DNA of 64,000 bases from positions 2,208,001 through 2,272,000 of the forward strand of contig OZ241362.1 of assembly GCA_965200315.1 (NCBI GenBank), read 5' to 3'. The notes below the pieces were generated by a model. It was given only the letters and a program-made list of their open reading frames with translations, was not told the origin of the DNA and did not search any database. The DNA comes from Candidatus Latescibacterota bacterium. Lineage in GTDB: Bacteria > Latescibacterota > UBA2968 > UBA8231. Within the stretch, counting starts at the first letter, position 1; every line of letters starts with the position of its first letter. Below, piece by piece: positions 12,775-56,690 of this stretch. A program made the translations under genes and the position numbers.

Positions 12775-14781
12775 ATGCGATGGGCGCTGTTGGCTTGTGC
12801 CGCGCTGATGTGTAGTCCCGGGGCGGCGCAAGAGTGGTGGCAACTCGGCGGGCAGGGCGGCGTTTCGCCGGCGGACGTGGCGGATTTCAGCCTGATGATA
12901 GACAACGCAGCCGCTTCCCACGCACTCCAGCCCTTTGAACTCGACCCGAGCGAAAACATCTTGCCCCAGCTCGGCCCTTGGCAGCGCTGGCGCTTTCCCA
13001 CCGACCCGCAATTCCGCCCCGGCCATCCGCGCTTTTGGACGGACATCAACCACAACGTCCTGTACAAGGCCACGGAAACCTTTCTCTTCGTCGATGGGGA
13101 CTCGACCACGTACGTGGAGCGACGCGACGATAAGCAGATTTTCTATACCATTGACTTGGGCACTCAAGTGCCGGTAGAGCGCTTTGTATTTTTTCCGCCC
13201 GAAGGCGTCAGCCCCGAAAGCGACGAGCCTTTCAAGCCCAATTACATCCTCAAGTCCTATAGTCTGACGGCCGCCCAAGCCGAGACCGGCATTATGCAAG
13301 AAGAAATAGAGCGCGGGTTCGTCTGGCGGGGCGATGGGCCGTGCTGCCCGCTGGCCATCCCCCTCGGCTACGAGGAGCGCAATGCCGACGCGGAGACCGA
13401 AATCGCGTTTCCCACGCAATACCTCCGCTTCTTCCGCCTAATCGCCATTCCCGACGGATTCACCCTGTACGGCGATCCCATTGTCACGCGCTCGGCCTTT
13501 GCCGAGATGGAAATCTATGGCCGGGGCTTCGCTCCGCAGGCGACCTATGAGTCGCAGATCATAGACTTGGGGCGGGAAGTCAACTTCGGACAGGTGCGCT
13601 TGTCGGTGAGCAGATGGCGCAAGGACGGGGAGCAACTGCTGCCGTCCGGCGGCCCAACCCGCGCCCAAGTGGAAATTCGCACCGGGCGCGACGACACCCC
13701 AACAGCTTATTTCGGCTTTGACGATCTGGGTGCCCATGTAGAGGTGACCAAGAAGCAATGGGATCGACTAATACCTCTAGAGACGCGCGGCGCAACCATA
13801 GCGGTCGGCTTCCGCGGTCCGGTGGCCGAGGATCTGAAAAACTGGAGCTTCTGGTCGCTGCCGTTGGCGGACTCGGGCCAACATCCGCGCCTGCCGTGGG
13901 GCCGCTACTTCCAATTGCGCGTACAGCTAGCAACAGACGCGCTGTGGGAATTTGCCCGCCTCGATTCCCTGCAAATCGAGATCGCGCCCCTGCTGGCCGA
14001 CCGGGTCGTCGGCGAGATCGTCCTCGCGGCGGAACCTCACCCCCAAGGCGGACAAGTGCGCGTCCCAACGGGCGAGCAAACCCCATTCACGTACGACCTA
14101 GGCGTGGAATTTGCCAGCGCGGACCGCATCGGCTGCGACGCCGTGCGCATCTCAGCACCAGCGGAAGCCGCATTTCGCTATCTGGAGATGGGCGACCCGC
14201 TCAGCGTTGTAGAGCCGGATAGCCTGCGGCGTGAGGCAAGCGGCTTTGTGCTGTTCTTGCCGCGCCCCCTGCATCCGAGCGGCGATCAGCGGCTGCGCAT
14301 CGGCCTCGAAGCCGTGCTGTACGGCGAGGCCGGCGAATTTGGCGGCGAGGTTTTCAACCGCAGCGAGCCCAGCCTGTTGCAGCGCGTCGAAGGAGGAGAC
14401 GTCAGCGCGGAGCTAGGCTCCAACCAGTTGCTCGTCGTAGCGTCTGCCGCCTCCACGGGTGGGGTGCTGGGAGACATTGAGGCCGGCAGCGGCGCGTTTA
14501 CCCCCCAAGGCGACGGCGTAAACGACCTGTTGTCCATCCAATACACCCTTTTCCGGGTGCGGGAGTCGTCTCAAGTGCAGGTTGGCGTGTATGCGCTCGA
14601 TGGGCGGCCGATATGGGCAGCGGATCCAAAGGTGCTGGGCGCAGGACGCCATGCAGTGCTTTGGGATGGCCGGGACGCGGCCGGGCAGTTGGTTCCCGTA
14701 GGCGTGTACTTGGCGCGAGTGGAAGTGGAAACGGATAAGGGGCAAGAGGTGCGGATGCAGCCAGTGGCCGTGGCGTACTAG
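12775..14781 (+). CDS. Third secreted FlgD-Ig-tailed paralogue
   Basis: Signal peptide MRWALLACAA. RTGRDDTP, NWSFWS, FTPQGDGVND, WDGRDAAG..VPVGVY, terminal VAY. Confidence 0.75.
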   Translation: MRWALLACAALMCSPGAAQEWWQLGGQGGVSPADVADFSLMIDNAAASHALQPFELDPSENILPQLGPWQRWRFPTDPQFRPGHPRFWTDINHNVLYKATETFLFVDGDSTTYVERRDDKQIFYTIDLGTQVPVERFVFFPPEGVSPESDEPFKPNYILKSYSLTAAQAETGIMQEEIERGFVWRGDGPCCPLAIPLGYEERNADAETEIAFPTQYLRFFRLIAIPDGFTLYGDPIVTRSAFAEMEIYGRGFAPQATYESQIIDLGREVNFGQVRLSVSRWRKDGEQLLPSGGPTRAQVEIRTGRDDTPTAYFGFDDLGAHVEVTKKQWDRLIPLETRGATIAVGFRGPVAEDLKNWSFWSLPLADSGQHPRLPWGRYFQLRVQLATDALWEFARLDSLQIEIAPLLADRVVGEIVLAAEPHPQGGQVRVPTGEQTPFTYDLGVEFASADRIGCDAVRISAPAEAAFRYLEMGDPLSVVEPDSLRREASGFVLFLPRPLHPSGDQRLRIGLEAVLYGEAGEFGGEVFNRSEPSLLQRVEGGDVSAELGSNQLLVVASAASTGGVLGDIEAGSGAFTPQGDGVNDLLSIQYTLFRVRESSQVQVGVYALDGRPIWAADPKVLGAGRHAVLWDGRDAAGQLVPVGVYLARVEVETDKGQEVRMQPVAVAY

Positions 14782-14857
14782 GAACAGCTTGATTCTCAAG
14801 GCATTTTGACTTTATATAGGCGGCGGCTTGTCTTATCCATACCATTCTGCGCCCTTA

Positions 14858-14878
14858 TGCGTCCATCTGCGGATCATC
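14858..14878. repeat. Dispersed intergenic repeat, copy 1 of 4
   Basis: TGCGTCCATCTGCGGATCATC; matches copies at 22083, 24973 and 46996. Confidence 0.8.
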
Positions 14879-14949
14879 GCATGAATGATGTAGGGCTGCT
14901 ATATCTCTCACCCTCGTATCGAACAACCTGAGTAAACAAGGAGAGCTAC

Positions 14950-15555
14950 ATGGTACCACCATGGAACGTAATTGGTAAAGCCGTCGAGACAATTGCTAAA
15001 GTCGCCCCGGCAATAGTCGCAGCCGCCAAGCCTTTCATTAGTAGGTCCGAGCCTGACAATGACGAAGAACAACGCCGAGAACATGAAAAGCAACTCGAAC
15101 ATGAGCTCGAAGAACAACGCCGAGAACATGAAAAGCAACTCAAACATGAGCTCGAAGAACAACGCCGAGAACATGAAAAGCTCGAAGAACAACGCCGAGA
15201 ACATGAAAAGCTCGAAGAACAACGCCGAGAACATGAAAAGCAACTCGAACATGAGCTCGAAGAACAACGCCGAGAACATGAAAAGCAACTCGAACATGAG
15301 CAGCGAAAACGCAAAAAGCAAGTGATAGCAATAGGAGTAGTGTGTCTTATTCTAAGCTTAGTAATTGGCTCTGTTACTTGGTACGGCCTCCAACCCAGCC
15401 AACCTAGTGAGCAGATAGTCGCGCTTGAAGAACTCGAGAAGTACGAAAAGGCACGGGATGCTGGTCTCCAAGCCCTAGAAGATTATGTCATTAACAACCC
15501 GAACAGTCCGTATATTTCCCAAGCAAAAGATCAAATTCGGGCTTATCAAAGATAA
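14950..15555 (+). CDS. Membrane-anchored coiled-coil protein with internal tandem repeats
   Basis: SD AAGGAG. E/K/Q/R/H-rich repeats, then RKRKK and one TM helix (VIAIGVVCLILSLVIG). Ends with a TPR-end-like YVINNPNSPY. Confidence 0.75.
   Translation: MVPPWNVIGKAVETIAKVAPAIVAAAKPFISRSEPDNDEEQRREHEKQLEHELEEQRREHEKQLKHELEEQRREHEKLEEQRREHEKLEEQRREHEKQLEHELEEQRREHEKQLEHEQRKRKKQVIAIGVVCLILSLVIGSVTWYGLQPSQPSEQIVALEELEKYEKARDAGLQALEDYVINNPNSPYISQAKDQIRAYQR
15061..15300 (+). repeat. In-frame composite tandem repeat: 6 x 30-bp unit and 4 x 15-bp unit
   Basis: A=CTCGAAGAACAACGCCGAGAACATGAAAAG (LEEQRREHEK), B=CAACTCGAACATGAG (QLEHE). Order AB AB A A AB AB; copies nearly identical. Confidence 0.95.
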
Positions 15556-37529: not shown

Positions 37530-38639
37530 CTAGAGAAACATGTTTCTGTACCCGTTCCGCATACCAACAGATACAGGGGATCTAGGTAATTTCAGGATTT
37601 CTTCGTAATCGACATAGGGCTTTTCAAAATTGATGCGAAAGCATCGACCTATCAAAGAAGATTTTCCAGACAAAAGGAAAGACGAGGCGGCACCTGCCAC
37701 AAAGCCGGCAGCTATGCTAGCGTAGGGCGGAAACGCAAATTGATGGCTGTAAAGGCCATTCTTACTCATTTCCTCCTTATAGGTATAGTACTCGCTGTGC
37801 TTGACGGACAAAGTAGCTTCCGATTGGATTTCAAACTCGTTGTAGCAGCACGTTTCTCCAGGCACATAAATAGGGCCGATGCAGGCTTCACTGCCGTCCA
37901 TAAATGCGGATATCCACGGCTTTTCGGCGGAAAGTGCTGAGAGATCTACGGTGTGAAAGAGATGGGAAGAGAATACTTCGGAGGTTGCGACGACAAAGTT
38001 TGAAGCGCCAAATAGGCTTTCTAAGGCATCTTGATTATGATAGGATTCTTTGATCGCCTTGAGACGATCATAACCGAGATCTAACAGATGCAATTCCAAG
38101 GACTCGACGTAAGATCGCCCCTTCTCGATATAAGTCGAGGAACGATTAAACTGAGCCTGATCAACCGTAGCATTTTCGATGTGTCGGTCGTCCAAGATTT
38201 GCATCTGGCCGACCCCGATTTTTGCGAATTCTTCCGCCACGCGGCTACCGAGATAACCGGCACCTACGATGCCAATGCAGATGTTATCGAGGTCTTGGTT
38301 GCCACCTACGATAGCATTCAAATAGCTTACGATAGGACTTTCATTGGCTGGAGAGATAAACCCTTGGGAGGTCAGAGTTGAGATTAGTTCTTCCGCATCT
38401 TCGAGCTCTCCTTCCCCAATCACTTTTTGCTCTTGGAGATCTTGCAGAGAAGCTGGTGACGCCAAACGACGGAGTACTCGTCCTAGAAGATGAGTTCTGC
38501 CTTCATCTCTGATCGTCTGGTTGAATTTGGACCTCACGCCGTGTAATACTAAAATTTCATCTTCGCCGCAAAAGATGAACTTGAGTGAGGGATTGAGCAC
38601 GAAGCGGCAATTGGTAATGAATTCGGTTTTGATTTCCAT
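37530..38639 (-). CDS. E1/ThiF-like TOMM scaffold (SagC-like) with probable N-terminal RRE
   Basis: IGIVGAGYLGSRVA Rossmann motif, IGPIYVPGETCCY, terminal ILKLPRSPVS; winged-helix-sized N-terminal region. Confidence 0.85.
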   Translation of the reverse strand: MEIKTEFITNCRFVLNPSLKFIFCGEDEILVLHGVRSKFNQTIRDEGRTHLLGRVLRRLASPASLQDLQEQKVIGEGELEDAEELISTLTSQGFISPANESPIVSYLNAIVGGNQDLDNICIGIVGAGYLGSRVAEEFAKIGVGQMQILDDRHIENATVDQAQFNRSSTYIEKGRSYVESLELHLLDLGYDRLKAIKESYHNQDALESLFGASNFVVATSEVFSSHLFHTVDLSALSAEKPWISAFMDGSEACIGPIYVPGETCCYNEFEIQSEATLSVKHSEYYTYKEEMSKNGLYSHQFAFPPYASIAAGFVAGAASSFLLSGKSSLIGRCFRINFEKPYVDYEEILKLPRSPVSVGMRNGYRNMFL

Positions 38640-47063: not shown

Positions 47064-48887
47064 ATGACTGCTACTCCGATCATCATGGACTGGGACCTGA
47101 CGAGCTATTTCGCTGAATTTGATGGCCCGGCCATGCGGCAATTCAAAGACAAACTGCAACGGGATATTGCAGCGGCACGTCAGCAAGCCGCCGCCTTAGC
47201 ACCGCTTGCCGAGGCCAATGCCGCCGCTTGGGAGGGCGTGTTCCTCCGGACTGAGGGGCTGACTGACCGCCTCTCCCATTTGGGCTCCTACCTCGGCTGC
47301 CTCACCGCGGCGGACGCCGACAATGAGGACTACGCCCGCGAGGAAGCCGCCTTTGCCCTGCTAGCGGCCGAGAGCGAAAAGCTCGATGTCGAACTCCTGT
47401 GCGCACTCAAGGACACCTCGGACGAAATGTTTGCCAAGTTTGTTCAACGGCCCGCCTTGGCCGACTGCGGCCACTTCCTCGGCCGCCAGCGCGAAGACGC
47501 CCAGCGCACCATGAGCCCGGAGAAGGAGATCCTCTCTGCCGACCTCGGGGTCGACGGTCTCCACGCCTGGGACCGCCTCTACGACTCAATTTCCGGCAAG
47601 CTCGAATTCGACATGGCGTTTCCCGATGGCCGCACCGAGCACCGCCCCATGTCGCAGCGCCGCGCCCTGATGGAAGATCCCGACCGCCGAGTCCGCCAAG
47701 CCGCCTTCGATGGCGGCAATCGGGCCTGGGAAACCATGGAAGACGTCGCCGCCGCCGCGCTCAACGCCATCTCGGGGACGCGGCTGACCCTTAACCAGCA
47801 TCGCGGCGTGGATCACTTTCTCGATGTCGCTCGCTTTCAAGCGTCTGTTTCGCCCAAGACCCTCGACGCGATGTTCGCGGCTATCGCCGAGCAAATCGAA
47901 CTGCCGCGCCGCATCCTCGCCCTCAAGTCGCAACTCATGGGCATTGAGGGCGTCGCCTGGTACGATCTGGGTGCGCCGCTACCGCTGCCCGACCAAGGGC
48001 AACTCTCTTGGGAAGAGGGCACGGATCTCGTCGTCCGCTCCTTTGCGGCGGCCTACCCACGCCTAGGCGAGTTCCTCGGCCAAGTCTGCGAACGCCAATG
48101 GATCGAGCACGCGCCCCGCCCCGGCAAGCGGCCCGGCGCTTTTTGCACTGGCTCGCTGTTGACCCGCGAGTCCCGCGTCTATATGACTTACAACGACACC
48201 CTCGGCGATGTGCTCACGCTCGCCCACGAGGTCGGCCACGCCTTCCACAGCTACATCATGCGCGACGTGCGCACCTACGCCCACTTCTACCCGATGACGC
48301 TGGCCGAATCGGCCTCTACCTTCGGCGAAATGATCCTCACCGAGGGCATCCTCGCCGACCCTTCCTTCAGCCCGGCCCAAAAGGCCAGTGCCCTCGACCA
48401 AGAAATTGGCCACGGCGCGATCTTCCTGCTCGACATCCCGGTGCGCTACCAGTTCGAGAAAAAGCTCTACGAGGAGCGCACCGACGGCGAACTCACGGTC
48501 AGTCGCCTCAAAGAGCTGATGGTCGAAACCCAGCGCGACGTCTTCGGCGACGCACTCGCGCAGGGGGGCGAAGACCCCTACTTCTGGGCCTCGAAACTCC
48601 ACTTTTACATCACTGGCGTGACCTTCTACAACTTCCCTTACACCTTTGGCTTCCTGCTCAGTCGCGGCCTGTATTCAATGTTCAAACAAGAGGGCCGCGA
48701 CTTTCTTCCCCGCTACGAGGAATTCCTGCGCCTCACCGGCAGCGACACGGCCGAGGGCGTGGCGCGCCGTGCCCTCGGTCGCGACCTCGAAGACACTCAG
48801 TTCTGGACCGAGGCCATCCAGACCTTGGAGGCCCCGTTGGCCGAGTTAGAGAAATTGCTACCCGAGGTTCTACCTGATCATTCGTAA
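47064..48887 (+). CDS. M3B oligoendopeptidase F family peptidase
   Basis: WDL start, KRPGAFC, HEVGHAFH, AESAS, FYNFPYTFG; SD AAGGA before ATG 47064. Confidence 0.92.
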   Translation: MTATPIIMDWDLTSYFAEFDGPAMRQFKDKLQRDIAAARQQAAALAPLAEANAAAWEGVFLRTEGLTDRLSHLGSYLGCLTAADADNEDYAREEAAFALLAAESEKLDVELLCALKDTSDEMFAKFVQRPALADCGHFLGRQREDAQRTMSPEKEILSADLGVDGLHAWDRLYDSISGKLEFDMAFPDGRTEHRPMSQRRALMEDPDRRVRQAAFDGGNRAWETMEDVAAAALNAISGTRLTLNQHRGVDHFLDVARFQASVSPKTLDAMFAAIAEQIELPRRILALKSQLMGIEGVAWYDLGAPLPLPDQGQLSWEEGTDLVVRSFAAAYPRLGEFLGQVCERQWIEHAPRPGKRPGAFCTGSLLTRESRVYMTYNDTLGDVLTLAHEVGHAFHSYIMRDVRTYAHFYPMTLAESASTFGEMILTEGILADPSFSPAQKASALDQEIGHGAIFLLDIPVRYQFEKKLYEERTDGELTVSRLKELMVETQRDVFGDALAQGGEDPYFWASKLHFYITGVTFYNFPYTFGFLLSRGLYSMFKQEGRDFLPRYEEFLRLTGSDTAEGVARRALGRDLEDTQFWTEAIQTLEAPLAELEKLLPEVLPDHS

Positions 48888-48938
48888 GAAGTCGGCAGAC
48901 TCTTCGCGCTCCAGCCACCCGCAACCCCAAGGATTCCC

Positions 48939-49694
48939 ATGTTGCGCTTACTTCTAGTTTTCCTCTTTTGCATCGGTTCAGCCCACGCCGCCGACAATCC
49001 CCCGGCCCCCGGCTTCAACGCCGCTGGTTCCGATCCCAAGGCTATCGCCTTAGCAGACGAAGTCATGGCCGCGATGGGTGGCCGCGCCAACTGGGACGCT
49101 ACCCGCTACATCACTTGGCGTTTTTTTGGTTTTCGCTTACACGTGTGGGACAAGTGGACCGGGGACATTCGCTTCGAGCAGGGCGATCTGACGGTGCTGA
49201 TGAATATCCACAGCAAAGAGGGCCGCGCCTTCTCCGCTAGGGAGGAAATCAGCGATCCCGACACGCTCGCGGCCAAGCTCGACCACGGCTACCGCTCTTG
49301 GATCAACGACTCGTACTGGCTGGTCATGCCTTACAAGCTCAAGGACACCGGCGTCACCTTGCGCTATCGGGGCCTAGAATCCACCGAGGACGGCCGCCCT
49401 GCCGAAGTGCTGGAACTCACGTTCAAAGATGTCGGCGTCACCCCGCACAACAAGTACGCGGTCTGGATCGACCAAGAATCGCGGTTAGTGACCCAATGGG
49501 CGTTCTACCGCGAGGCCGCCGACGCCGAACCGGGCTTTATCGGCCCCTGGACCAACTGGCAGCGCCACGGATCCATTTTGCTCTCCGACGGTCGCGGCGA
49601 GCGTCAGCACACCGATGTGGCGGTCTTAGACAAATTGGCGCGCTCGGTTTTCACGAGTCCGGCCCCGCTGGATTGCTCTTGCCTTCTCGAGTAA
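48939..49694 (+). CDS. Conserved secreted hypothetical protein
   Basis: Signal peptide ending AHA; AMGG..NW, WINDSYWL.MPYKL.D.GV and VGVTP.NKY motifs. Confidence 0.7.
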   Translation: MLRLLLVFLFCIGSAHAADNPPAPGFNAAGSDPKAIALADEVMAAMGGRANWDATRYITWRFFGFRLHVWDKWTGDIRFEQGDLTVLMNIHSKEGRAFSAREEISDPDTLAAKLDHGYRSWINDSYWLVMPYKLKDTGVTLRYRGLESTEDGRPAEVLELTFKDVGVTPHNKYAVWIDQESRLVTQWAFYREAADAEPGFIGPWTNWQRHGSILLSDGRGERQHTDVAVLDKLARSVFTSPAPLDCSCLLE

Positions 49695-49733
49695 ATAGGC
49701 CACTGCACTGCTAGGCCGATATAGTCAACGCAA

Positions 49734-49764
49734 AAAAGCCGACCCAGCTATTGGGTCGGCTTTT
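49734..49764. terminator. Bidirectional intrinsic terminator
   Basis: AAAAGCCGACCCA-GCTAT-TGGGTCGGCTTTT between convergent genes. Confidence 0.9.
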
Positions 49765-49788
49765 ACTTTTGCATGAGGCGCGTTCAGC

Positions 49789-49809
49789 TCAGGCTGCCCG
49801 CAGTTCATT
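49789..49809 (-). repeat. Diverged duplicate of the 3' end of the PhyH gene (55534..55554)
   Basis: Minus strand AAT GAA CTG CGG GCA GCC TGA versus AAT GAG CTG CGG GCG GCG TGA. Both encode NELRAA*; 18/21 nt identical and all 3 changes synonymous. Confidence 0.8.
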
Positions 49810-52800
49810 TACCTAGGTAGGATACGTGGTGCTAGTTCCTTCTTTAAGTTGGCGCGTGAAGAGAGCTGGACGAGGTCAAGGGTATCATTCTTATGTCCAA
49901 TTTGTACGAGCCGTGCAATCGGCCCCTCTGCCTCTGGCGAGAGACACTCTAAGTGTCCGAATACGATGACAGCATCCCGCGCTCTCGACAGAGCGACATT
50001 GAGCCGATGCCTATCGAGTAAAAACTGAACGCGACCACGATTCCTCGTCATTAGGAGGATCACAATGTCCGCTTCACCGCCCTGAACTGCATCTACAGTG
50101 GTAACCTTTATGTTGAAGTGGAAATTCGAGTTCTTGATCTCCTGATCAACAGCATTCCGCTGAGCTTTGTACGGACAAACCACTAAAACGCTCAACTCCA
50201 TATCTTTCGCCTGCCGCTGAAGGTGCCGTAGCACCGCGTGAAGTGCCTCCCTCTCTGTCCGGTTTTCTATCGACATTGAGGATTGACTCTTATATTGTCG
50301 GTAGGCCGAGACTTTCGTGAAATCGACAAATACCAATCGCTTGCTTGTTAACGTCCAGTCACCGTCTTTTCTGTGGGACTTGAGGTGCCCATCGTAAAAC
50401 AACTTGCTGACGATGTCACCGATATCCTTGTGCATACGGTACTGTGTTGTCAGCATACCTTTGTTGGAGTCGGGTAGCTGATCGAATATCTCGTGAAACA
50501 TGTTGCGCCGAAGGAGTTCCTCAACCTCCTTCAAAGATAACCTGTATCCAATACCCTCATCTAATACATCGGCTGTCACTGTTGGGGGCAACTGGTTGTG
50601 ATCGCCGACGAGAATGACCTTTCGGGCAACAGAGGCCGGAATAACTAGCTCTGCACCAAAGGCCTTTCCCGCTTCGTCAATAATCGCGATGTCGAACGTG
50701 CGATTCCATAACCCATAGTCGCGTCTAGCCATTCCGACACACGTCGCAGCATGGATCCGCCGCGGTCCCAAAAGCCACTTCGCCGCCGATTCTCGGCCCT
50801 CACGCGTGTCCAGCAACTCATTCCACCGTTTCCAAGATTCGTTCCCAAGCTCTTCTTCGTCTGGCTCCTTTTTTAAGCCCTCTAACAAGCGCGAATGCCA
50901 CACCGGCTCAAGCACGGTTCCCTCAACCCGCTCCACACTGCCGTAACGCACAACTTCCTCAGAGAGCCTGCCGGCCTTCATCAGGAGGTCGTTGACGAGC
51001 TTGTCGACCGCTACATGAGTTGGAGCTGCAATAAGAACGCTAGGCCACGTCTGTTCCTGCCCTTGCTTAAAAAGCGAAAGGAGCCAGTTCACGAGAAGCG
51101 TAGTCTTCCCAGTACCAGGTGGCCCCCAGACTGCCACAACAGCTTCATCAGAGTTCAACAACCTCTCGACAGGTGCCTTGCCGAGGTGACGGTTTTTAAC
51201 GGTATCACCTGATAGACCGAGGAGAGTCGAATGAACCCTTGCAGAAGCAAACTTTCCAAGAATGGCATGCTCAAGTGCCCTAGATAGGGTTTGCTGCTGC
51301 AAACCCTCGGCTTGTTCAATCCGGGAAAGTCCGAACGGCTTGATATCCCCAAAGTTTGCCTCAGCCGGGACGTCGAGTTCAAGACGGCAAATGCCAAGCT
51401 GTCGGTCTTTCCATTTGGCACGTTTCACCTTCCAACTGCGATCATGCCCAACTACCTGAAGTCTGGTGAACCCGTCAGCGGAAGTGGCTTCGTCAACCCA
51501 GACAGGAGGTTCGCTGTCTAAAATCGTGCCAACAACGACACGTCCACTACGTTCGCTCTTGCCAGGAAGAAAACCACAAGAACCCGTTATTTGATGGTAC
51601 TCTTGTTGATCTTGATAGATCAGTGACAGCTTCCTCAGGTGGCGGGCTGTTCTGCGTTGCAGCAGCATCTGCTTCTGACTACTGAGTTCCGCATGTATGG
51701 CTTCGACGAACAAATTGAAGAGCGAGCGATCTGCTTCTTTGTCATCTGGGGTCCCTGGAATAAAAGCGGTGATGCCAGCATGAACGCGAATGGAGATCGG
51801 CGAATCGATTTCATCGAAGAGTATATCTTCAAGGACAAATGCCTTGTGTTCTGCATCAACCGTCGTTACAAGTGTGACCTGACCCATCGTGAAGGCAATT
51901 CTGCCTGAGTCCATAAGATGTATTCGCCAAGGGGCATCAGTCTCATTGGAGATGCGTTCGTATGCCTGCACTAGGAGTGCCAACATCGCTTCGTTGACCG
52001 CCAGTAGGATAGGTGACCAGTACTTGCGGCTGCCTTCAATGCGAGGATGAAGACGAACACGAAGAGGCTGATCGCTACGTCGGTCAGCGATCTCTCGTAG
52101 CGTCCATATTTCGGGATAGACATCTGCGTTGCTCTCAGGCGTCAACCAACTATAATCTTGTGAACTCTTACACGGCAGAAGAAGTGGAGCCCCAAGATAT
52201 TCAAGTAGGATACCTTCTCTATCTCGATGAATGACCTTTGCGGGTAGTGCCCCACCACCGTCAAGCAGGTTGGCCTCAAGCAAAGCAGCACCTGTAGTCG
52301 TTACGCTTGCAACTCGCTTCTCGTGGTCAACATTGAAAAGCATTGCGCGTCCATTGAGGTCGCTGGACCAATCTTTCTCTTTGAGGCGGTAGCCATGAAG
52401 TTGCTTGGGGATCTTGCCATCAAAATGGACTAGCCCGGCCTCCCTTGGGAAGTCATTGGGTAACTCAAGGTCTCCTATACTCGGGATATTACTCTGGGCA
52501 CCACTTGCTACAGCAGAGAGGCTTCTCTTTAGCTGCCTCAAATAAGCCCGTTCCGCATTGATTTGGATCAGGGCAAGCTCGAGTTCCAAGACGATCTGAC
52601 GAAAGGAATCCCGCTCACGGCTACCGAAGGGCCTATCCAAGATTTTACGAGCTTTGGCTTGGCCAGCAACTAAGTCAGTAGCAACAGCATCTCTCATGTT
52701 GAGTTCCTGCTCAATGAAGGAATCCAAGTGATTCACGTAGTCGCTGATTAGAGGACGCCTAGCCCTTGCCTCAGCAGCATGAATTTGAGCAAGCTGTGCC

Positions 52801-52907
52801 TCTAGCGCATCAATTTCTTCCTGAACTTCGGCGGTACGACGACCGTTCCACCAGCTAACTGCACTGGCAGTGAGACTGATCCCGGCGATGGCGAGTAGAG
52901 GGACCAT
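49809..52907 (-). CDS. SF1B Upf1/DNA2-NAM7-like helicase with N-terminal hydrophobic segment and coiled coil
   Basis: GPPGTGKTT, APTHVAVD, IIDEAG, VGDHNQLPP, QYRM, TVDAVQGGEAD, RLNVALSRAR. N-terminus MVPLLAIAGISLTASAVSWW. Confidence 0.9.
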   Translation of the reverse strand: MVPLLAIAGISLTASAVSWWNGRRTAEVQEEIDALEAQLAQIHAAEARARRPLISDYVNHLDSFIEQELNMRDAVATDLVAGQAKARKILDRPFGSRERDSFRQIVLELELALIQINAERAYLRQLKRSLSAVASGAQSNIPSIGDLELPNDFPREAGLVHFDGKIPKQLHGYRLKEKDWSSDLNGRAMLFNVDHEKRVASVTTTGAALLEANLLDGGGALPAKVIHRDREGILLEYLGAPLLLPCKSSQDYSWLTPESNADVYPEIWTLREIADRRSDQPLRVRLHPRIEGSRKYWSPILLAVNEAMLALLVQAYERISNETDAPWRIHLMDSGRIAFTMGQVTLVTTVDAEHKAFVLEDILFDEIDSPISIRVHAGITAFIPGTPDDKEADRSLFNLFVEAIHAELSSQKQMLLQRRTARHLRKLSLIYQDQQEYHQITGSCGFLPGKSERSGRVVVGTILDSEPPVWVDEATSADGFTRLQVVGHDRSWKVKRAKWKDRQLGICRLELDVPAEANFGDIKPFGLSRIEQAEGLQQQTLSRALEHAILGKFASARVHSTLLGLSGDTVKNRHLGKAPVERLLNSDEAVVAVWGPPGTGKTTLLVNWLLSLFKQGQEQTWPSVLIAAPTHVAVDKLVNDLLMKAGRLSEEVVRYGSVERVEGTVLEPVWHSRLLEGLKKEPDEEELGNESWKRWNELLDTREGRESAAKWLLGPRRIHAATCVGMARRDYGLWNRTFDIAIIDEAGKAFGAELVIPASVARKVILVGDHNQLPPTVTADVLDEGIGYRLSLKEVEELLRRNMFHEIFDQLPDSNKGMLTTQYRMHKDIGDIVSKLFYDGHLKSHRKDGDWTLTSKRLVFVDFTKVSAYRQYKSQSSMSIENRTEREALHAVLRHLQRQAKDMELSVLVVCPYKAQRNAVDQEIKNSNFHFNIKVTTVDAVQGGEADIVILLMTRNRGRVQFLLDRHRLNVALSRARDAVIVFGHLECLSPEAEGPIARLVQIGHKNDTLDLVQLSSRANLKKELAPRILPR

Positions 52908-52919
52908 TTCGTTGCGCTA

Positions 52920-53342
52920 CTATTTCTTTAGTTGCACGATTTTGTCGGAGAGCTGCAACAGGTATTGATGTACCTCCTTCTTGTCATCGTCAGGAAGGTC
53001 TGGAGCCTTGGCTTTCTCCATAACATCGTCAAACAGCGACAACAGTCGCATCAGTGCTTCACGGGATTGTGCGAGCTCTTCCATTTTGGGCTTATTCTGT
53101 TCTCGGGTATCCTGCAAGTTAGCTTCCGCCTTTTGGACGTCAATCTCAGCTGCTCTGATACGTCCCTCCCACTCCACACAGGTTTTCTGAAGCTCTTTGT
53201 GGGACTTGAACACATCGCAAACAGATTGGATCGCGACAATTGCTTCCTTACATACCTGTAGCTTTGCAACCTCAACTTTCGTAGCAGCCATACCAGCGTT
53301 CTTGGCAATTTCAGCGGGGAGGTTCAATTTTTTGTCGAACAT
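52920..53342 (-). CDS. Small helical/coiled-coil hypothetical protein
   Basis: SD GAGGAG; 3-nt gap from the upstream gene. Confidence 0.75.
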   Translation of the reverse strand: MFDKKLNLPAEIAKNAGMAATKVEVAKLQVCKEAIVAIQSVCDVFKSHKELQKTCVEWEGRIRAAEIDVQKAEANLQDTREQNKPKMEELAQSREALMRLLSLFDDVMEKAKAPDLPDDDKKEVHQYLLQLSDKIVQLKK

Positions 53343-53345
53343 CGT

Positions 53346-53861
53346 TCACTCCTCTGTTTGGACCGAAGTCTCGTTATAGTTTTTGAGTCCGTGGCGAAAA
53401 TCTGTCCACGCGCCTTCCAGCGACTGCAGTTGCCTGTCAAAGGCTTCCAAGTCCGGCAGTTCAGATGAACGAATAGCCTCAAGTTCATCCAAAGTCGTCC
53501 TGTATACACAGCTACAAGCCAAGACCAACTCACCAAGCCTTTTTTGTATATCCTTTCTCTGTTTTATTGCCTCCTTGGCTAAGTCCAATTGTTCGCCGAG
53601 TTGTTGACGCTCAAGTCGTAGCCGTTTCTCTTCGTACGGAATAAATTTTTGTAATCCATCTCGATGCTCTCTAGCGGCTCTGAGATTCAGATAGGAACTC
53701 ACAGCATCCGCGACTGAAACCGCCGCCTCGATAGCCAACAAAGCAGGATTGGCTTTCGCTGCTGCTCTCGTCAGACCCGTCTTAAGACCATGCTTGGCAG
53801 CGAGTCTTGCGCTACTTGCCATGAAAGTGAGAGCGTGTCTGGGGACATGAGTTGCCATCAA
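53346..53861 (-). CDS. Helical protein with Ala-rich hydrophobic segment and coiled coil
   Basis: ANPALLAIEAAVSVADAVSSY; start overlaps the upstream stop. Confidence 0.75.
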   Translation of the reverse strand: MMATHVPRHALTFMASSARLAAKHGLKTGLTRAAAKANPALLAIEAAVSVADAVSSYLNLRAAREHRDGLQKFIPYEEKRLRLERQQLGEQLDLAKEAIKQRKDIQKRLGELVLACSCVYRTTLDELEAIRSSELPDLEAFDRQLQSLEGAWTDFRHGLKNYNETSVQTEE

Positions 53862-55429
53862 TCATTCACTCCTATAAGACACCAAGAGTCCGGAATTAAG
53901 TGCTTAGCAACCCTATCTGAAGCCACAGAGACACCATTCTTACCTATGGAGGGTAACGGAGGGAACGACGATCCCTTGAGCTTCCGCATAAAAACGCCTT
54001 CACTATCCTGCAACCGCCACAGCGTAGCTGTGTACGGTTCAAAAAACAGTGTCTCAAGAGACTCACCGTTCTTCCGTGCAACTGCATGGCATTGAACCAT
54101 AAGAAAGTTACGACATTTCGAGTTCCCATTCGCAGGGCGATATGGCTTCTCTCCAACCGGGGCGAAGACGCTCCACAGTCCGGCCAAGAGCCAGGGCTCT
54201 GGCGTGTCAATATAAACAGGCTTCCAAGGAAGTGATCCGTCGCGGCGCAGGAACACTCGCAATCGATCATCCTCTTGGAGACGTGCCAGTATCGATCGCT
54301 TATCTTCGGGGACGATACGTTCTATGAGCGTTTCAGGCAAAGCCTCATCGGTCGCTCGTAAAAACATATCCTCCGCTGGTCTGTTACGAGGCGGGCGGGG
54401 CCAATTACGAGGATGTTCGTCCTGTTCGCGCTGATCTTCGGCTAGAATAAATTGAGAGGATGGGTGTGCAGCACTCGCAAACAGGCCACGAATAGGGTCT
54501 GCATTAAGTTCTCTTGCGTGAACTACAGCCTCGGCAAGGTGCTTACCCTTCTTACTCGGACGCCACCCTTTAGCCAAGCCTTCCTCAACAAGGACTTTAT
54601 GTATCTGATCAAGTGTTAAGTATGGCAAGCCGGTAGTGGACTGAATGTCGTCCCGCGATCTTTCTGCGACGAGGTCCTCAAGGACATAAAGTACAACCGG
54701 GTCACAGCTTCGCGGTGTTTTTGCGATCGCCCATATTTTGAAGGGTAGGCTACTAAACGCGATAGAAATTTGTGGGGACTCGGGTTGTGGCAGGCACGCC
54801 CGAAGACTTCCAATAGCTCTCGCTCGCCGTTCTTTTTTATCGGTCAACCAGCCTTCAGGAAGTTCCACACGGGTGATTTTGACCTCAACTTCGTCCCCAA
54901 GAGCAACAACTTCGGAAGGATGGTCAATCCATTCCCAGCCGAGTTCCGCGATAGGTAACCAGACTCGGAAAGCACCCGAGTCTAAGATTACGCCCCGGTC
55001 CTTAAAATCGACGATCCTGCCTTTGAGTCGATCACCTTCATTCAGGCTTGAGAGTGCTGTGCGAGCTTTGGCCTCGGTAACGGCGCTGATACTTGCCTTC
55101 CATCCTTTGGGATCATGCTTGATGAGGACAAAATCGACTTCTTGCCCATCTTGAAGCACTTCGGATGGAGAATCGATAAAGCGATCTGCCATCTCATCCA
55201 AGAAGACGACGGCCGTGAGATTACTTGAGGCAACCTTGGCGAATTTATCGCCGACGTACTCGACGCGACCGCTTACGAGGTCGCCAGGGTTTGGCCCACT
55301 CCGAGCTGTTGATCTATATGGCCTATTGGATCGTGGCCTGTCGGGTCGTGAACGCTCTTGCTTAGCTTGCTTAGTAGGTTGCTCCCCTTCTCCAAAGAGC
55401 AAAGACAATAGGTTATTCCAGAGGCTCAC
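53858..55429 (-). CDS. Tandem S1 RNA-binding-domain protein with wHTH-like and unknown C-terminal region
   Basis: Two S1 repeats (GDLVSGRV...EMADRFIDSPSEVLQDGQEV; EGDRLKGRI...ELGWEWIDHPSEVVALGDEVEVKI). HTH-like DDIQSTTGLP...LVEEGL. GTG start. Confidence 0.8.
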   Translation of the reverse strand: MSLWNNLLSLLFGEGEQPTKQAKQERSRPDRPRSNRPYRSTARSGPNPGDLVSGRVEYVGDKFAKVASSNLTAVVFLDEMADRFIDSPSEVLQDGQEVDFVLIKHDPKGWKASISAVTEAKARTALSSLNEGDRLKGRIVDFKDRGVILDSGAFRVWLPIAELGWEWIDHPSEVVALGDEVEVKITRVELPEGWLTDKKERRARAIGSLRACLPQPESPQISIAFSSLPFKIWAIAKTPRSCDPVVLYVLEDLVAERSRDDIQSTTGLPYLTLDQIHKVLVEEGLAKGWRPSKKGKHLAEAVVHARELNADPIRGLFASAAHPSSQFILAEDQREQDEHPRNWPRPPRNRPAEDMFLRATDEALPETLIERIVPEDKRSILARLQEDDRLRVFLRRDGSLPWKPVYIDTPEPWLLAGLWSVFAPVGEKPYRPANGNSKCRNFLMVQCHAVARKNGESLETLFFEPYTATLWRLQDSEGVFMRKLKGSSFPPLPSIGKNGVSVASDRVAKHLIPDSWCLIGVND

Positions 55430-55533
55430 TGATCCCCCTGTTGTTATGGGGTACTTTCATCGGTAGGGTAGTGTTCTAAGAGAGTTTCGGGAGAAAGCTA
55501 TACAGTAGGGCCAGATTCTGATATGAACTAACT

Positions 55534-56346
55534 TCACGCCGCCCGCAGCTCATTCTCGGGCGCATTCTCCAGCCGCGACAGCCAGTAGGACACATCGTAG
55601 CTGTCGTCGCCGGTCAAGAAGCGCCACAGCTTGATGCGGTTGACGACCTCTAAGCGCACCTCGTTGCCGTACCAGCGATGGTTGGCGTTGAGCAGCGCGG
55701 AGACCTCCGCATCGTCGATATCGTCGGTGTTCCACAGCTTTTTCTGCCGCACCGTGGGGTTGAGCCGCAGCTTGAACATGTAGCGCTTGCGGCCGGTTAG
55801 GTTGGGCTGGGCGCAGTGCCAGATGCCGTGGTGCGCCACGGCCACCGTGCCGGCCTTGCAGACCATCGGCATCTGCCCGAGGAAGTTTTGATAGCGGGCG
55901 ATGTCCGACTCGCTGATGCGTCGGTAGTGACTGCCGGGCAGGAACATGGTACCGCCCATCTCCCTCGGCGTGTCATGAGCAAAGTAAAAAAACTGGACGT
56001 CAAAGTGCAGCCGGGTGTCGATAATCGCGTCGGCGTGCCAGATCTGCCCGTGCTGGTGGTGAGCATCAACCGTATGCACGGCGTGGTGGTCGTAGAGCGG
56101 GTCGGGGCCGACTAAGCTGTGAACGATCCCCTGAATCTGGGGCAGGCGCACCACTTGACCGATTACCGCATCGGCCCACAATTCGGCGAGCGGCGCGCCA
56201 GCGCGGCCCCGTGGGACCCCGGCTTCCATTTCCGCACATGCGGCGCGATTGATCTCGTCGGGCACCAGCTCGTCAAAGCGCAAAAAGCCATCGGCGACAA
56301 ACTGCGCCATCTGCTTGGTATTCAGGAGATATTGCTTATCGACCAT
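55534..56346 (-). CDS. Phytanoyl-CoA dioxygenase (PhyH) family Fe/2OG enzyme
   Basis: F..DGFL, WHAD, GGT.FLPGSH, G......H..IWH, R. Confidence 0.85.
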   Translation of the reverse strand: MVDKQYLLNTKQMAQFVADGFLRFDELVPDEINRAACAEMEAGVPRGRAGAPLAELWADAVIGQVVRLPQIQGIVHSLVGPDPLYDHHAVHTVDAHHQHGQIWHADAIIDTRLHFDVQFFYFAHDTPREMGGTMFLPGSHYRRISESDIARYQNFLGQMPMVCKAGTVAVAHHGIWHCAQPNLTGRKRYMFKLRLNPTVRQKKLWNTDDIDDAEVSALLNANHRWYGNEVRLEVVNRIKLWRFLTGDDSYDVSYWLSRLENAPENELRAA

Positions 56347-56620
56347 CGATTGCCTCCAGCTTTTCGAGGATGTACTCGTATTTCAGGTAGGACGTGTTGT
56401 ATTCCATGCCTGGATAGGCCGGGTACTGCTGGGGGAACTGCACCACCCGCCACCCGTCTCGCATGGCCGCCACCACCGAAGGATAGGGCGGTTCCTCGCT
56501 ATCGCCGCTGCTAGATCGGTCCTCGCCCGTGCCGTCGTACAGCGACCAAGCCACGGTTTGGCTGTGCAAATCGGGAGAATGGGCGTAGAGCACCAATAAT
56601 TTCTGCCTAAGCTGGGCCAT
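56336..56620 (-). CDS. Small hypothetical protein coupled to PhyH
   Basis: SD GAGAGG; overlaps the PhyH start; PPY.SV.AAM.DGWRV motif. Confidence 0.65.
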   Translation of the reverse strand: MAQLRQKLLVLYAHSPDLHSQTVAWSLYDGTGEDRSSSGDSEEPPYPSVVAAMRDGWRVVQFPQQYPAYPGMEYNTSYLKYEYILEKLEAIDGR

Positions 56621-56690
56621 CGCGTCCTCTCGTTAAGGGTATTCAATAATAGGACGCGACACAGCCCACAGCAATGAGCCTGTCGCCCGC

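Follow-up and report, generated by a model that had tools for sequence, protein, structure and literature searches.

The window analysed here is a 64,000-nucleotide (nt) stretch of DNA from Candidatus Latescibacterota bacterium (GenBank assembly GCA_965200315.1, contig OZ241362.1, positions 2,208,001 to 2,272,000 of the forward strand). It carries a compact island of four genes, here called A to D, which encode an S1/winged-helix protein, two small helix-rich proteins and a Upf1-like helicase. All four lie on the minus strand in the table of open reading frames (ORFs): gene A at 53858-55429 (523 amino acids (aa), GTG start), gene B at 53346-53861 (171 aa from a TTG codon, 170 from an ATG), gene C at 52920-53342 (140 aa) and gene D at 49809-52907 (1032 aa). 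Genes A and B overlap by 4 nt, while B and C are spaced by 3 nt and C and D by 12 nt. Alignment shows that the homologues of gene B begin at the ATG located one codon inside the TTG start. An initial annotation of this DNA had described four packed, co-oriented genes as the whole cargo of a bounded AT-richer island, and both the gene layout and the island boundaries were confirmed.

The island is a precise insertion. A direct repeat of 22 bp, imperfect with 18/22 nt identical between copies, marks both of its ends: the left copy (49789-49810) shares 2 nt with the stop codon of gene D, and the right copy (55534-55555) is the 3′ end, including the stop codon, of a flanking PhyH-like gene (PhyH domain, 3.1e-08). 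The repeat is doubled in the window and single in the empty sites of related genomes, and the inserted DNA therefore amounts to ~5,745 bp. A default repeat scan of the window had returned no flanking repeat because the copies share no 9-nt exact seed; the repeat surfaced from the comparison with empty sites. A near-identical copy of the PhyH-like gene (81-95% DNA identity) occurs in 27 of 30 other genomes of the same genus. At the 21 same-genus loci with both flanks, the flanks abut or overlap by 10-21 nt in 19 cases, the two exceptions being a gap of 94 nt (locus L041) and one of ~650 nt (L042). The guanine-plus-cytosine (GC) content is 0.510 over 49807-55532, compared with 0.609 on the left (46100-49784) and 0.601 on the right (55555-60555). 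The cargo consists of the four genes and a leader of ~100 nt, and nothing else; no integrase was found in the island and no tRNA in the 64-kb window.

The leader is specific to the island (55430-55533, minus strand, 5′ of gene A), is absent from empty sites and presumably contains the promoter of the cassette. A Shine-Dalgarno-like AGGGGG lies 5 nt 5′ of the GTG of gene A, and no sigma-70 consensus was found in the leader. Past gene D, a GC-rich hairpin with T-runs on both strands (49734-49764) belongs to the core DNA, is also present in empty sites and is likely the terminator shared by gene D and the convergent left-flank gene. Contigs of two RNA libraries (runs X5 and X6, one study) span all four genes, which is compatible with expression but no proof of it, because such libraries can hold DNA. 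These contigs end near the hairpin, at 49771 and 49673, where DNA contigs continue; since both runs come from one study and the ends are those of contigs, they cannot be used as a 3′ end. Two observations concern sequence variation within the cassette. In all four runs compared, contigs break at 53278-53307 and 53710-53739, and a 60-nt contig of run X1 (depth 13 versus 35) links 53739 back to 53278, which could represent a minority 462-bp tandem duplication of most of B and the start of C. Within gene A, two 129-nt alleles that differ at six positions occur at 54843-54971.

The four genes are conserved as a single, translationally coupled unit. They follow the order A-B-C-D in 11/11 species-representative genome loci found by tblastn and in 14/14 metagenome loci, as far as contigs reach. 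Seven pairs among the metagenome loci overlap or duplicate one another, and one locus (L019) is cut inside D by the contig end. The co-occurrence and fixed order, which the initial annotation had named as points to check, thus hold at all 25 loci within this limit. The protein families are closed and of similar size, with 55 clusters for A, 81 for B and 54 for D. All four genes are under purifying selection, with ratios of nonsynonymous to synonymous substitution (dN/dS) of 0.24-0.37 relative to the closest relative, locus L014, and of 0.29-0.42 relative to the next, L015. In a locus from a proteobacterial metagenome-assembled genome (L018, 2688-8389), A is split at residue ~420 and D at ~398, each into two frames; these splits may reflect decay or long-read assembly errors.

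According to database records, the genome loci come from three Latescibacteria/Latescibacterota, KSB1, Marinobacter, Gammaproteobacteria, Proteobacteria, Ectothiorhodospiraceae, Burkholderiaceae and Caballeronia calidae, and hence from at least four phylum-level lineages, including Latescibacterota, KSB1, Gamma- and Betaproteobacteria. The family is small, with ~55-80 clusters among 5.8 billion proteins, and the records include the cultivable proteobacterial genera Caballeronia, Marinobacter and Halomonas. Its marker domain is present in 4/168 Latescibacterota genomes, and the cassette in 3/60 close relatives of the host. In one congener (G011) the cassette occupies the same site, and in another (G023) it occupies a different one, with the PhyH site empty. 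The cassette is mobile and patchy, and it has been transferred horizontally across phyla.

Protein A starts with a hydrophobic or amphipathic helix (residues 3-12) and a disordered basic linker (14-43), which is net positive in 29/36 family sequences. Two S1 domains (45-214) and a MarR-like winged helix (232-313) follow, and the protein ends with a family-specific C-terminal domain (314-523). The Pfam S1 match covers two stretches (E 4.9e-15), and the structure model has a predicted local distance difference test score (pLDDT) of 87.2. Full-length homologues number 55, and the count of S1 repeats varies among them, with four stretches in one member. The profile of the C-terminal domain found 39 matches among 1.84 billion representatives. 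Thirty-three of these are proteins of 438-644 aa that carry the domain at their C-terminal end or close to it; the remaining six comprise a 383-aa match (profile positions 1-74 only), four short fragments and a doubtful one. An S1 domain was also present in 19/21 of the more distant C-terminal-domain matches scanned. The shared layout and the accompanying S1 domains imply that the architecture of A is fixed and that its C-terminal domain occurs nowhere else that HMMER sees. The invariant columns of this domain are mostly Trp, Pro, Gly and Phe, with no invariant His or Lys.

Protein D combines a hydrophobic N-terminal helix (2-20), a helical hairpin (26-134) and a family-specific beta-rich region (158-390) with a stalk (397-441), a 1B barrel (443-532) and the RecA1/RecA2 domains (~580-1015). 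It matches AAA_12 (1.6e-39) and AAA_11 (3.4e-30) in Pfam, and its structure model has a pLDDT of 84.4. The motifs GPPGTGKT, DEAGK, GDHNQLPP, TVDAVQGGE and NVALSRAR are invariant or nearly so among 41 D sequences. The model aligns to IGHMBP2, Upf1 and SETX from residues 413-417 on, so that the alignment covers the helix 397-441 and the strands 443-532. D is thus a complete Upf1/IGHMBP2-like superfamily 1B (SF1B) core with motifs III, V and VI and both Walker A and B intact. ATP-driven 5′-to-3′ translocation on RNA or single-stranded DNA (ssDNA) is predicted for it. The region in front of the core has a narrower distribution. Used as a query, the N-terminal 570 residues retrieved 54 proteins, of which 51 have lengths of 1004-1059 aa, and this similarity in length indicates that the region is specific to this family.

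Residues 1-19 are the most hydrophobic 19-residue window of D (Kyte-Doolittle mean 1.59-2.10) in 10/10 homologues, and they are followed by WWNGRR, an aromatic and then basic stretch. The helix is modelled at a pLDDT below 50; values this low are usual for a helix modelled without its membrane. Judged from its sequence, a membrane anchor with an N-out/C-in orientation is plausible, from which the bulk of D would be cytoplasmic.

The C-terminal domain of A (314-523) and residues 140-400 of D match the helicase core in their degree of conservation, and the latter contain the invariant residues R155, R187, H195, R198, D216, R228, R285 and H330. The structure-search list for the A model was filled by its S1 and winged-helix parts, and that for the D model by helicase-core matches. 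Profiles of the two regions against PDB sequences gave no match at E ≤ 0.1, the sole match being at chance level (E 0.31), and in the ESM Atlas they gave scores ≤ 0.85 or no usable match. Two weak profile-profile pairings connect the proteins to each other: A 389-457, within the C-terminal domain, with D 283-356 (E 0.012, probability 3.5%, not significant), and D 216-272 with the second S1 domain of A, 130-197 (E 0.12, not significant). The order of strands and helices in the structure models agrees in both pairings. The N-terminal region of D may therefore repeat the S1-like barrel and the C-terminal domain of A, which would make adaptor and motor carriers of paralogous modules. A complex prediction of D 1-420 with full-length A, run with no control pairs, gave a median score of 0.24 against a mark of 0.32, a value that speaks neither for binding nor against it.

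Protein B has a conserved N-terminal part with a moderately hydrophobic helix (40-58), followed by a helix-rich C-terminal half. Its 81 homologues are all 113-192 aa long, none has a Pfam domain or an informative name, and their alignment contains 28 invariant columns. The Kyte-Doolittle maximum of B is 1.51, in a window that contains an invariant Glu and an acidic residue. B itself has no match in Pfam or PADLOC. Protein C is also helix-rich, with sub-threshold matches to coiled-coil-type families only (Spectrin 0.01, NsnC 0.01, JetC 0.048), and it has no hydrophobic segment (maximum 1.01). A homologue of C stands at the same position in 24/25 loci, and in the remaining one (L061) the contig ends before it. 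Both genes are constrained (dN/dS 0.37 for B and 0.26 for C). Compared with the 96%-identical protein of L014 (10052-10552), C in the window lacks 26 residues on its N-terminal side, owing to an in-frame deletion where conservation is poor. Composition and the sub-threshold family matches suggest that B and C are coiled coils. With a crude heptad-contrast script, B, C and D 1-140 were indistinguishable from part of the helicase core taken as a control. The hydrophobic or coiled-coil segments that the initial annotation saw in the helicase N-terminus and the small proteins stand in part: D 1-19 is hydrophobic and B reaches 1.51, but C has no hydrophobic segment and the coiled coils are putative.

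The neighbourhood of the cassette was scanned with flank ORFs of at least 100 aa (chosen greedily, with some short ones omitted) against PADLOC and Pfam. Besides the neighbours in the window, the scan took in 61 ORFs at 10 genome loci and 26 ORFs at five metagenome loci; overlapping or look-alike loci were counted once, which left 14 contexts. Recognised defence genes lie near the cassette in five of these independent contexts. L013 carries a type I R subunit (2.6e-51), an HNH gene and, just downstream, an ApeA-HEPN/PDC-S58 gene (3.4e-85, 13790-15067). L016 and its look-alike L062 carry a DrmD-like SNF2 gene (6e-92), a type IIG restriction-modification (RM) gene (8e-272), GmrSD/HEC-05 (3.8e-44) and MqsA. 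L020 has a pair of GmrSD genes together with an SNF2 helicase, L068/L069 have SoFic directly upstream (3.2e-117), and the shared context of the window and L014 has a BanI-like restriction endonuclease and methyltransferase island 3.75 kb away. Elsewhere, L023 adjoins an integrase and KfrA, L015 adjoins a PIN gene and L022 has a baeRF-family gene (bacterial release-factor-like, 135-1142, 7.6e-40) just upstream of the cassette. Non-specific matches were not counted, namely mad3 (ABC ATPase) and UvrB matches in L015 and a ZorB match (OmpA family) in L019. The baeRF gene of L022 and the ApeA-HEPN gene of L013 are translation- or RNA-directed conflict genes that adjoin an RNA-binding cassette.

In the window itself, the island sits among the housekeeping genes rpe, oligopeptidase F and a sigma factor. 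The BanI-like island is a second low-GC segment (43657-46057, GC 0.42-0.47), separated from the cassette by three core genes, and contains a BanI-like type II restriction endonuclease ORF and an N6/N4 DNA methyltransferase of 584 aa. The endonuclease ORF (214 aa) matches only profile positions 126-331 of 338 and may be truncated at its 5′ end or wrongly started. Further away, a ThiF/E1-like gene (37530-38639, 5e-12) gives weak PADLOC E1-E2 matches (2e-09).

The cassette is most likely a helicase-centred variant of immunity, built as a cross-phylum four-gene set that is uncatalogued in PADLOC-DB 2.0, NCBIfam r20 and PHROGs v4. We put the probability of an anti-phage or anti-mobile-element (conflict) role at roughly 0.6. 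This role is supported by the patchy distribution, the transfer across phyla, a GC content below that of the host, the precise insertion, the defence neighbours in 5/14 contexts and the kinship of D with MkoA, the helicase of the Mokosh defence system. In the proposed mechanism, D would act as an ATP-driven, Upf1-like 5′-to-3′ translocase tethered to the inner membrane through its N-terminal helix. The S1 domains of A would capture invader nucleic acid in single-stranded form, probably RNA above all, and pass it on to D, while B and C, as helical adaptors, would help to build the complex or control it by way of the helical hairpin of D. The output would be the motor itself, which would strip or block proteins on the strand (polymerases, ribosomes or others) or expose the strand to host RNases, so that invader gene expression would be shut off with no dedicated nuclease. 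Such remodelling has precedents in eukaryotes, where Sen1 acts on polymerases and Upf1 on messenger ribonucleoproteins, and Upf1, IGHMBP2, Sen1/SETX and ZNFX1 all work in this manner. The whole chain, with a membrane-held motor, S1 capture and a nuclease-free output, falls somewhat short of even odds.

Several points weigh against a conflict role or against individual steps of this mechanism. Searches of 72,556 plasmid records, 50,697 phage records and IMG/VR contigs did not recover the cassette, and the only mobility markers seen are the one neighbourhood with integrase and KfrA and the flanking repeat. Nine of the 14 contexts have no recognised defence neighbour, and the 5/14 is a raw count that does not by itself demonstrate enrichment near defence genes. 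The substrate may be RNA or ssDNA, as both kinds of module, S1 and Upf1-like, bind either. The sole evidence for the anchor is the hydropathy index, and the roles of B and C are derived from composition. Lastly, an enzyme could be concealed in the ~470 residues of A 314-523 and D 140-400 that have no fold assignment, and its presence would overturn the step in which the motor is the effector.

Two alternatives keep some weight. The first accepts the same sensor and motor and changes the output to abortive infection by membrane damage: on contact of D with invader nucleic acid, the helical hairpin of D, B and C would rearrange at the expense of ATP, and several N-terminal helices of D together with the hydrophobic helix of B would bundle into a membrane-disrupting oligomer. 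The hydrophobic stretch of D, conserved in all ten homologues, includes the invariant G9 and W19, which would suit helix packing, and both the moderately hydrophobic helix of B and the hydrophobic N-terminal helix of A, with the basic linker behind it, are conserved as well. No other effector domain was found in A-D. However, a single N-terminal helix has the look of a plain anchor, the B helix, with its invariant Glu and acidic residue, stays below the usual threshold of 1.6, C has no segment that could contribute, and no pore-forming family was matched in Pfam or PADLOC. The membrane-acting effector proposed in the initial annotation finds no specific support and is unlikely.

The second alternative places the cassette outside immunity, as an accessory module of RNA metabolism or quality control in which a membrane-associated helicase and an S1 adaptor, loosely comparable to a degradosome, would have been acquired horizontally to the benefit of the host or would help to maintain a mobile element. 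S1 proteins and SF1/SF2 helicases are standard in RNA decay machines, most contexts have no defence neighbour, and the island of the window lies among housekeeping genes. By contrast, the cassette is rare and patchy among phylum members and close relatives, occupies different sites within one genus and has a GC content 0.10 below that of the host. It also directly adjoins SoFic, GmrSD, type I or type IIG RM or ApeA genes in five contexts, and the nearest catalogued helicase is a defence protein, MkoA. We consider a role outside immunity improbable, at about the same level as membrane damage.

Least likely is a helicase-nuclease after all, with A 314-523 or D 140-400 as an unrecognised nuclease or other enzyme licensed by D as in Mokosh, Hachiman or Nhi: most helicase-centred systems do pair a motor with a nuclease, Arg, His and Asp are among the invariant residues of D 140-400 and both domains are conserved like the helicase core, but the columns of the A domain look structural and contain no invariant His or Lys, neither profile matches a solved protein at E ≤ 0.1 and no Pfam nuclease family was found.

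Returning to the motor-based mechanism, its most far-reaching form would make the cassette a nuclease-free bacterial counterpart of eukaryotic surveillance of the Upf1, Sen1 or ZNFX1 type. An S1/winged-helix adaptor would load the anchored motor on invader RNA, or on incoming ssDNA, at the envelope, the only activity would be ATP-driven remodelling of ribonucleoproteins, and the C-terminal domain of A and the pre-core region of D would be paralogous docking modules. In this complete form the proposal is doubtful. Whatever its mechanism, the cassette would reveal either a motor that defends the cell with no cutting or a new effector fold, among described helicase systems that almost all include a nuclease. 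It would also provide a tractable bacterial model for eukaryotic antiviral or RNA-surveillance helicases of the Upf1, Sen1 or ZNFX1 type and extend the link between bacterial defence and RNA-targeting immunity.

The cassette can be compared with several known systems and protein families. No model of PADLOC-DB 2.0, NCBIfam r20 (June 2026) or PHROGs v4 fits it as a system. None of A-D scores above cut-off in NCBIfam r20, which includes recent anti-phage models; A and B have no PADLOC match, C has only those at 0.01 and 0.048, and A-C have no PHROG. D falls below the cut-off of the NCBIfam model "PLuB", a name that was not found in the relevant literature searched. The literature searched, outside of which lie the supplementary system lists of discovery papers, contains no description of a four-gene system with S1 and Upf1-like proteins. 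The initial annotation had expected S1 repeats, a winged helix and a Upf1-like helicase in an uncatalogued set with neither nuclease nor kinase, and all of this was borne out; no nuclease or kinase domain was found in any of A-D at E ≤ 0.1 (Pfam).

Ribosomal protein bS1 shares the S1 domain with A. It has four to six S1 repeats, whereas A has two, together with a winged helix and a C-terminal domain of its own. The scores of A against bS1 models are 28-56 bits (best 56.3), compared with equivalog cut-offs of 368-918, and a best score of 56 bits against a cut-off of at least 368 rules out A as bS1. Elsewhere in the genome, an open frame of 624 aa represents its own bS1-like gene. The "ribosome surveillance" suggested at first finds no backing here, as A fails every bS1 model and nothing ties it to ribosomes. 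From other S1-domain RNA binders, such as PNPase, RNase E/R, Tex and GSP13, A is likewise set apart by its winged helix and C-terminal domain.

Among eukaryotic proteins, Upf1, IGHMBP2, Sen1/SETX and ZNFX1 are the closest structural relatives of the D core. They differ from D in sequence (18-24% identity), in their partners and in the N-terminal region, and D has no CH or zinc-knuckle domains. A prokaryotic likeness is found in type II/III CoCoNuTs, conflict systems that combine a Upf1-like SF1 helicase (CnuH) with coiled-coil proteins. CoCoNuTs are predicted to target RNA and are defined by the CnuB/McrB GTPase and the CnuC/McrC nuclease. Both the McrB-type GTPase and the McrC nuclease are absent from A-D in Pfam searches, and the island consists of four genes only.

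Most helicase-centred defence systems couple a motor to a nuclease, as exemplified by Hachiman, Nhi and Mokosh. Mokosh is the closest of the catalogued systems. Both are patchy and island-borne, and D matches the PADLOC models of MkoA (3.3e-92, also 7e-81) and MkoC (1.7e-35) as a COG1112 helicase, over residues 580-991 only. As described in the preprint by Millman et al., Mokosh joins a COG1112 helicase to a PLD nuclease, either as a separate MkoB gene or fused in MkoC, with an additional Ser/Thr kinase domain in type I, and its defence requires the ATP site of the helicase. No PLD domain was found in A-D at E ≤ 0.1, and no kinase family is among the 20 Pfam matches of D at the same threshold. 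A six-frame PLDc_2 search of the whole genome gave six matches, none in the window and all more than 0.9 Mb away. Three of them lie in frames of 1011-1137 aa (G000 C1 1226988, 3704363 and 5108451) and could belong to PLD-helicase genes, either Mokosh type II-like or of another kind. With neither PLD nuclease nor kinase, the cassette is not Mokosh. Here the helicase is accompanied by an S1/winged-helix protein and a pair of small helical proteins, and D carries a 570-residue N-terminal region found only in its own family. The candidate undescribed system of the initial annotation has new partners and fits no model, but its core is clearly akin to MkoA (3.3e-92), which places it beside a known helicase lineage, in new company, rather than among systems with no kin.

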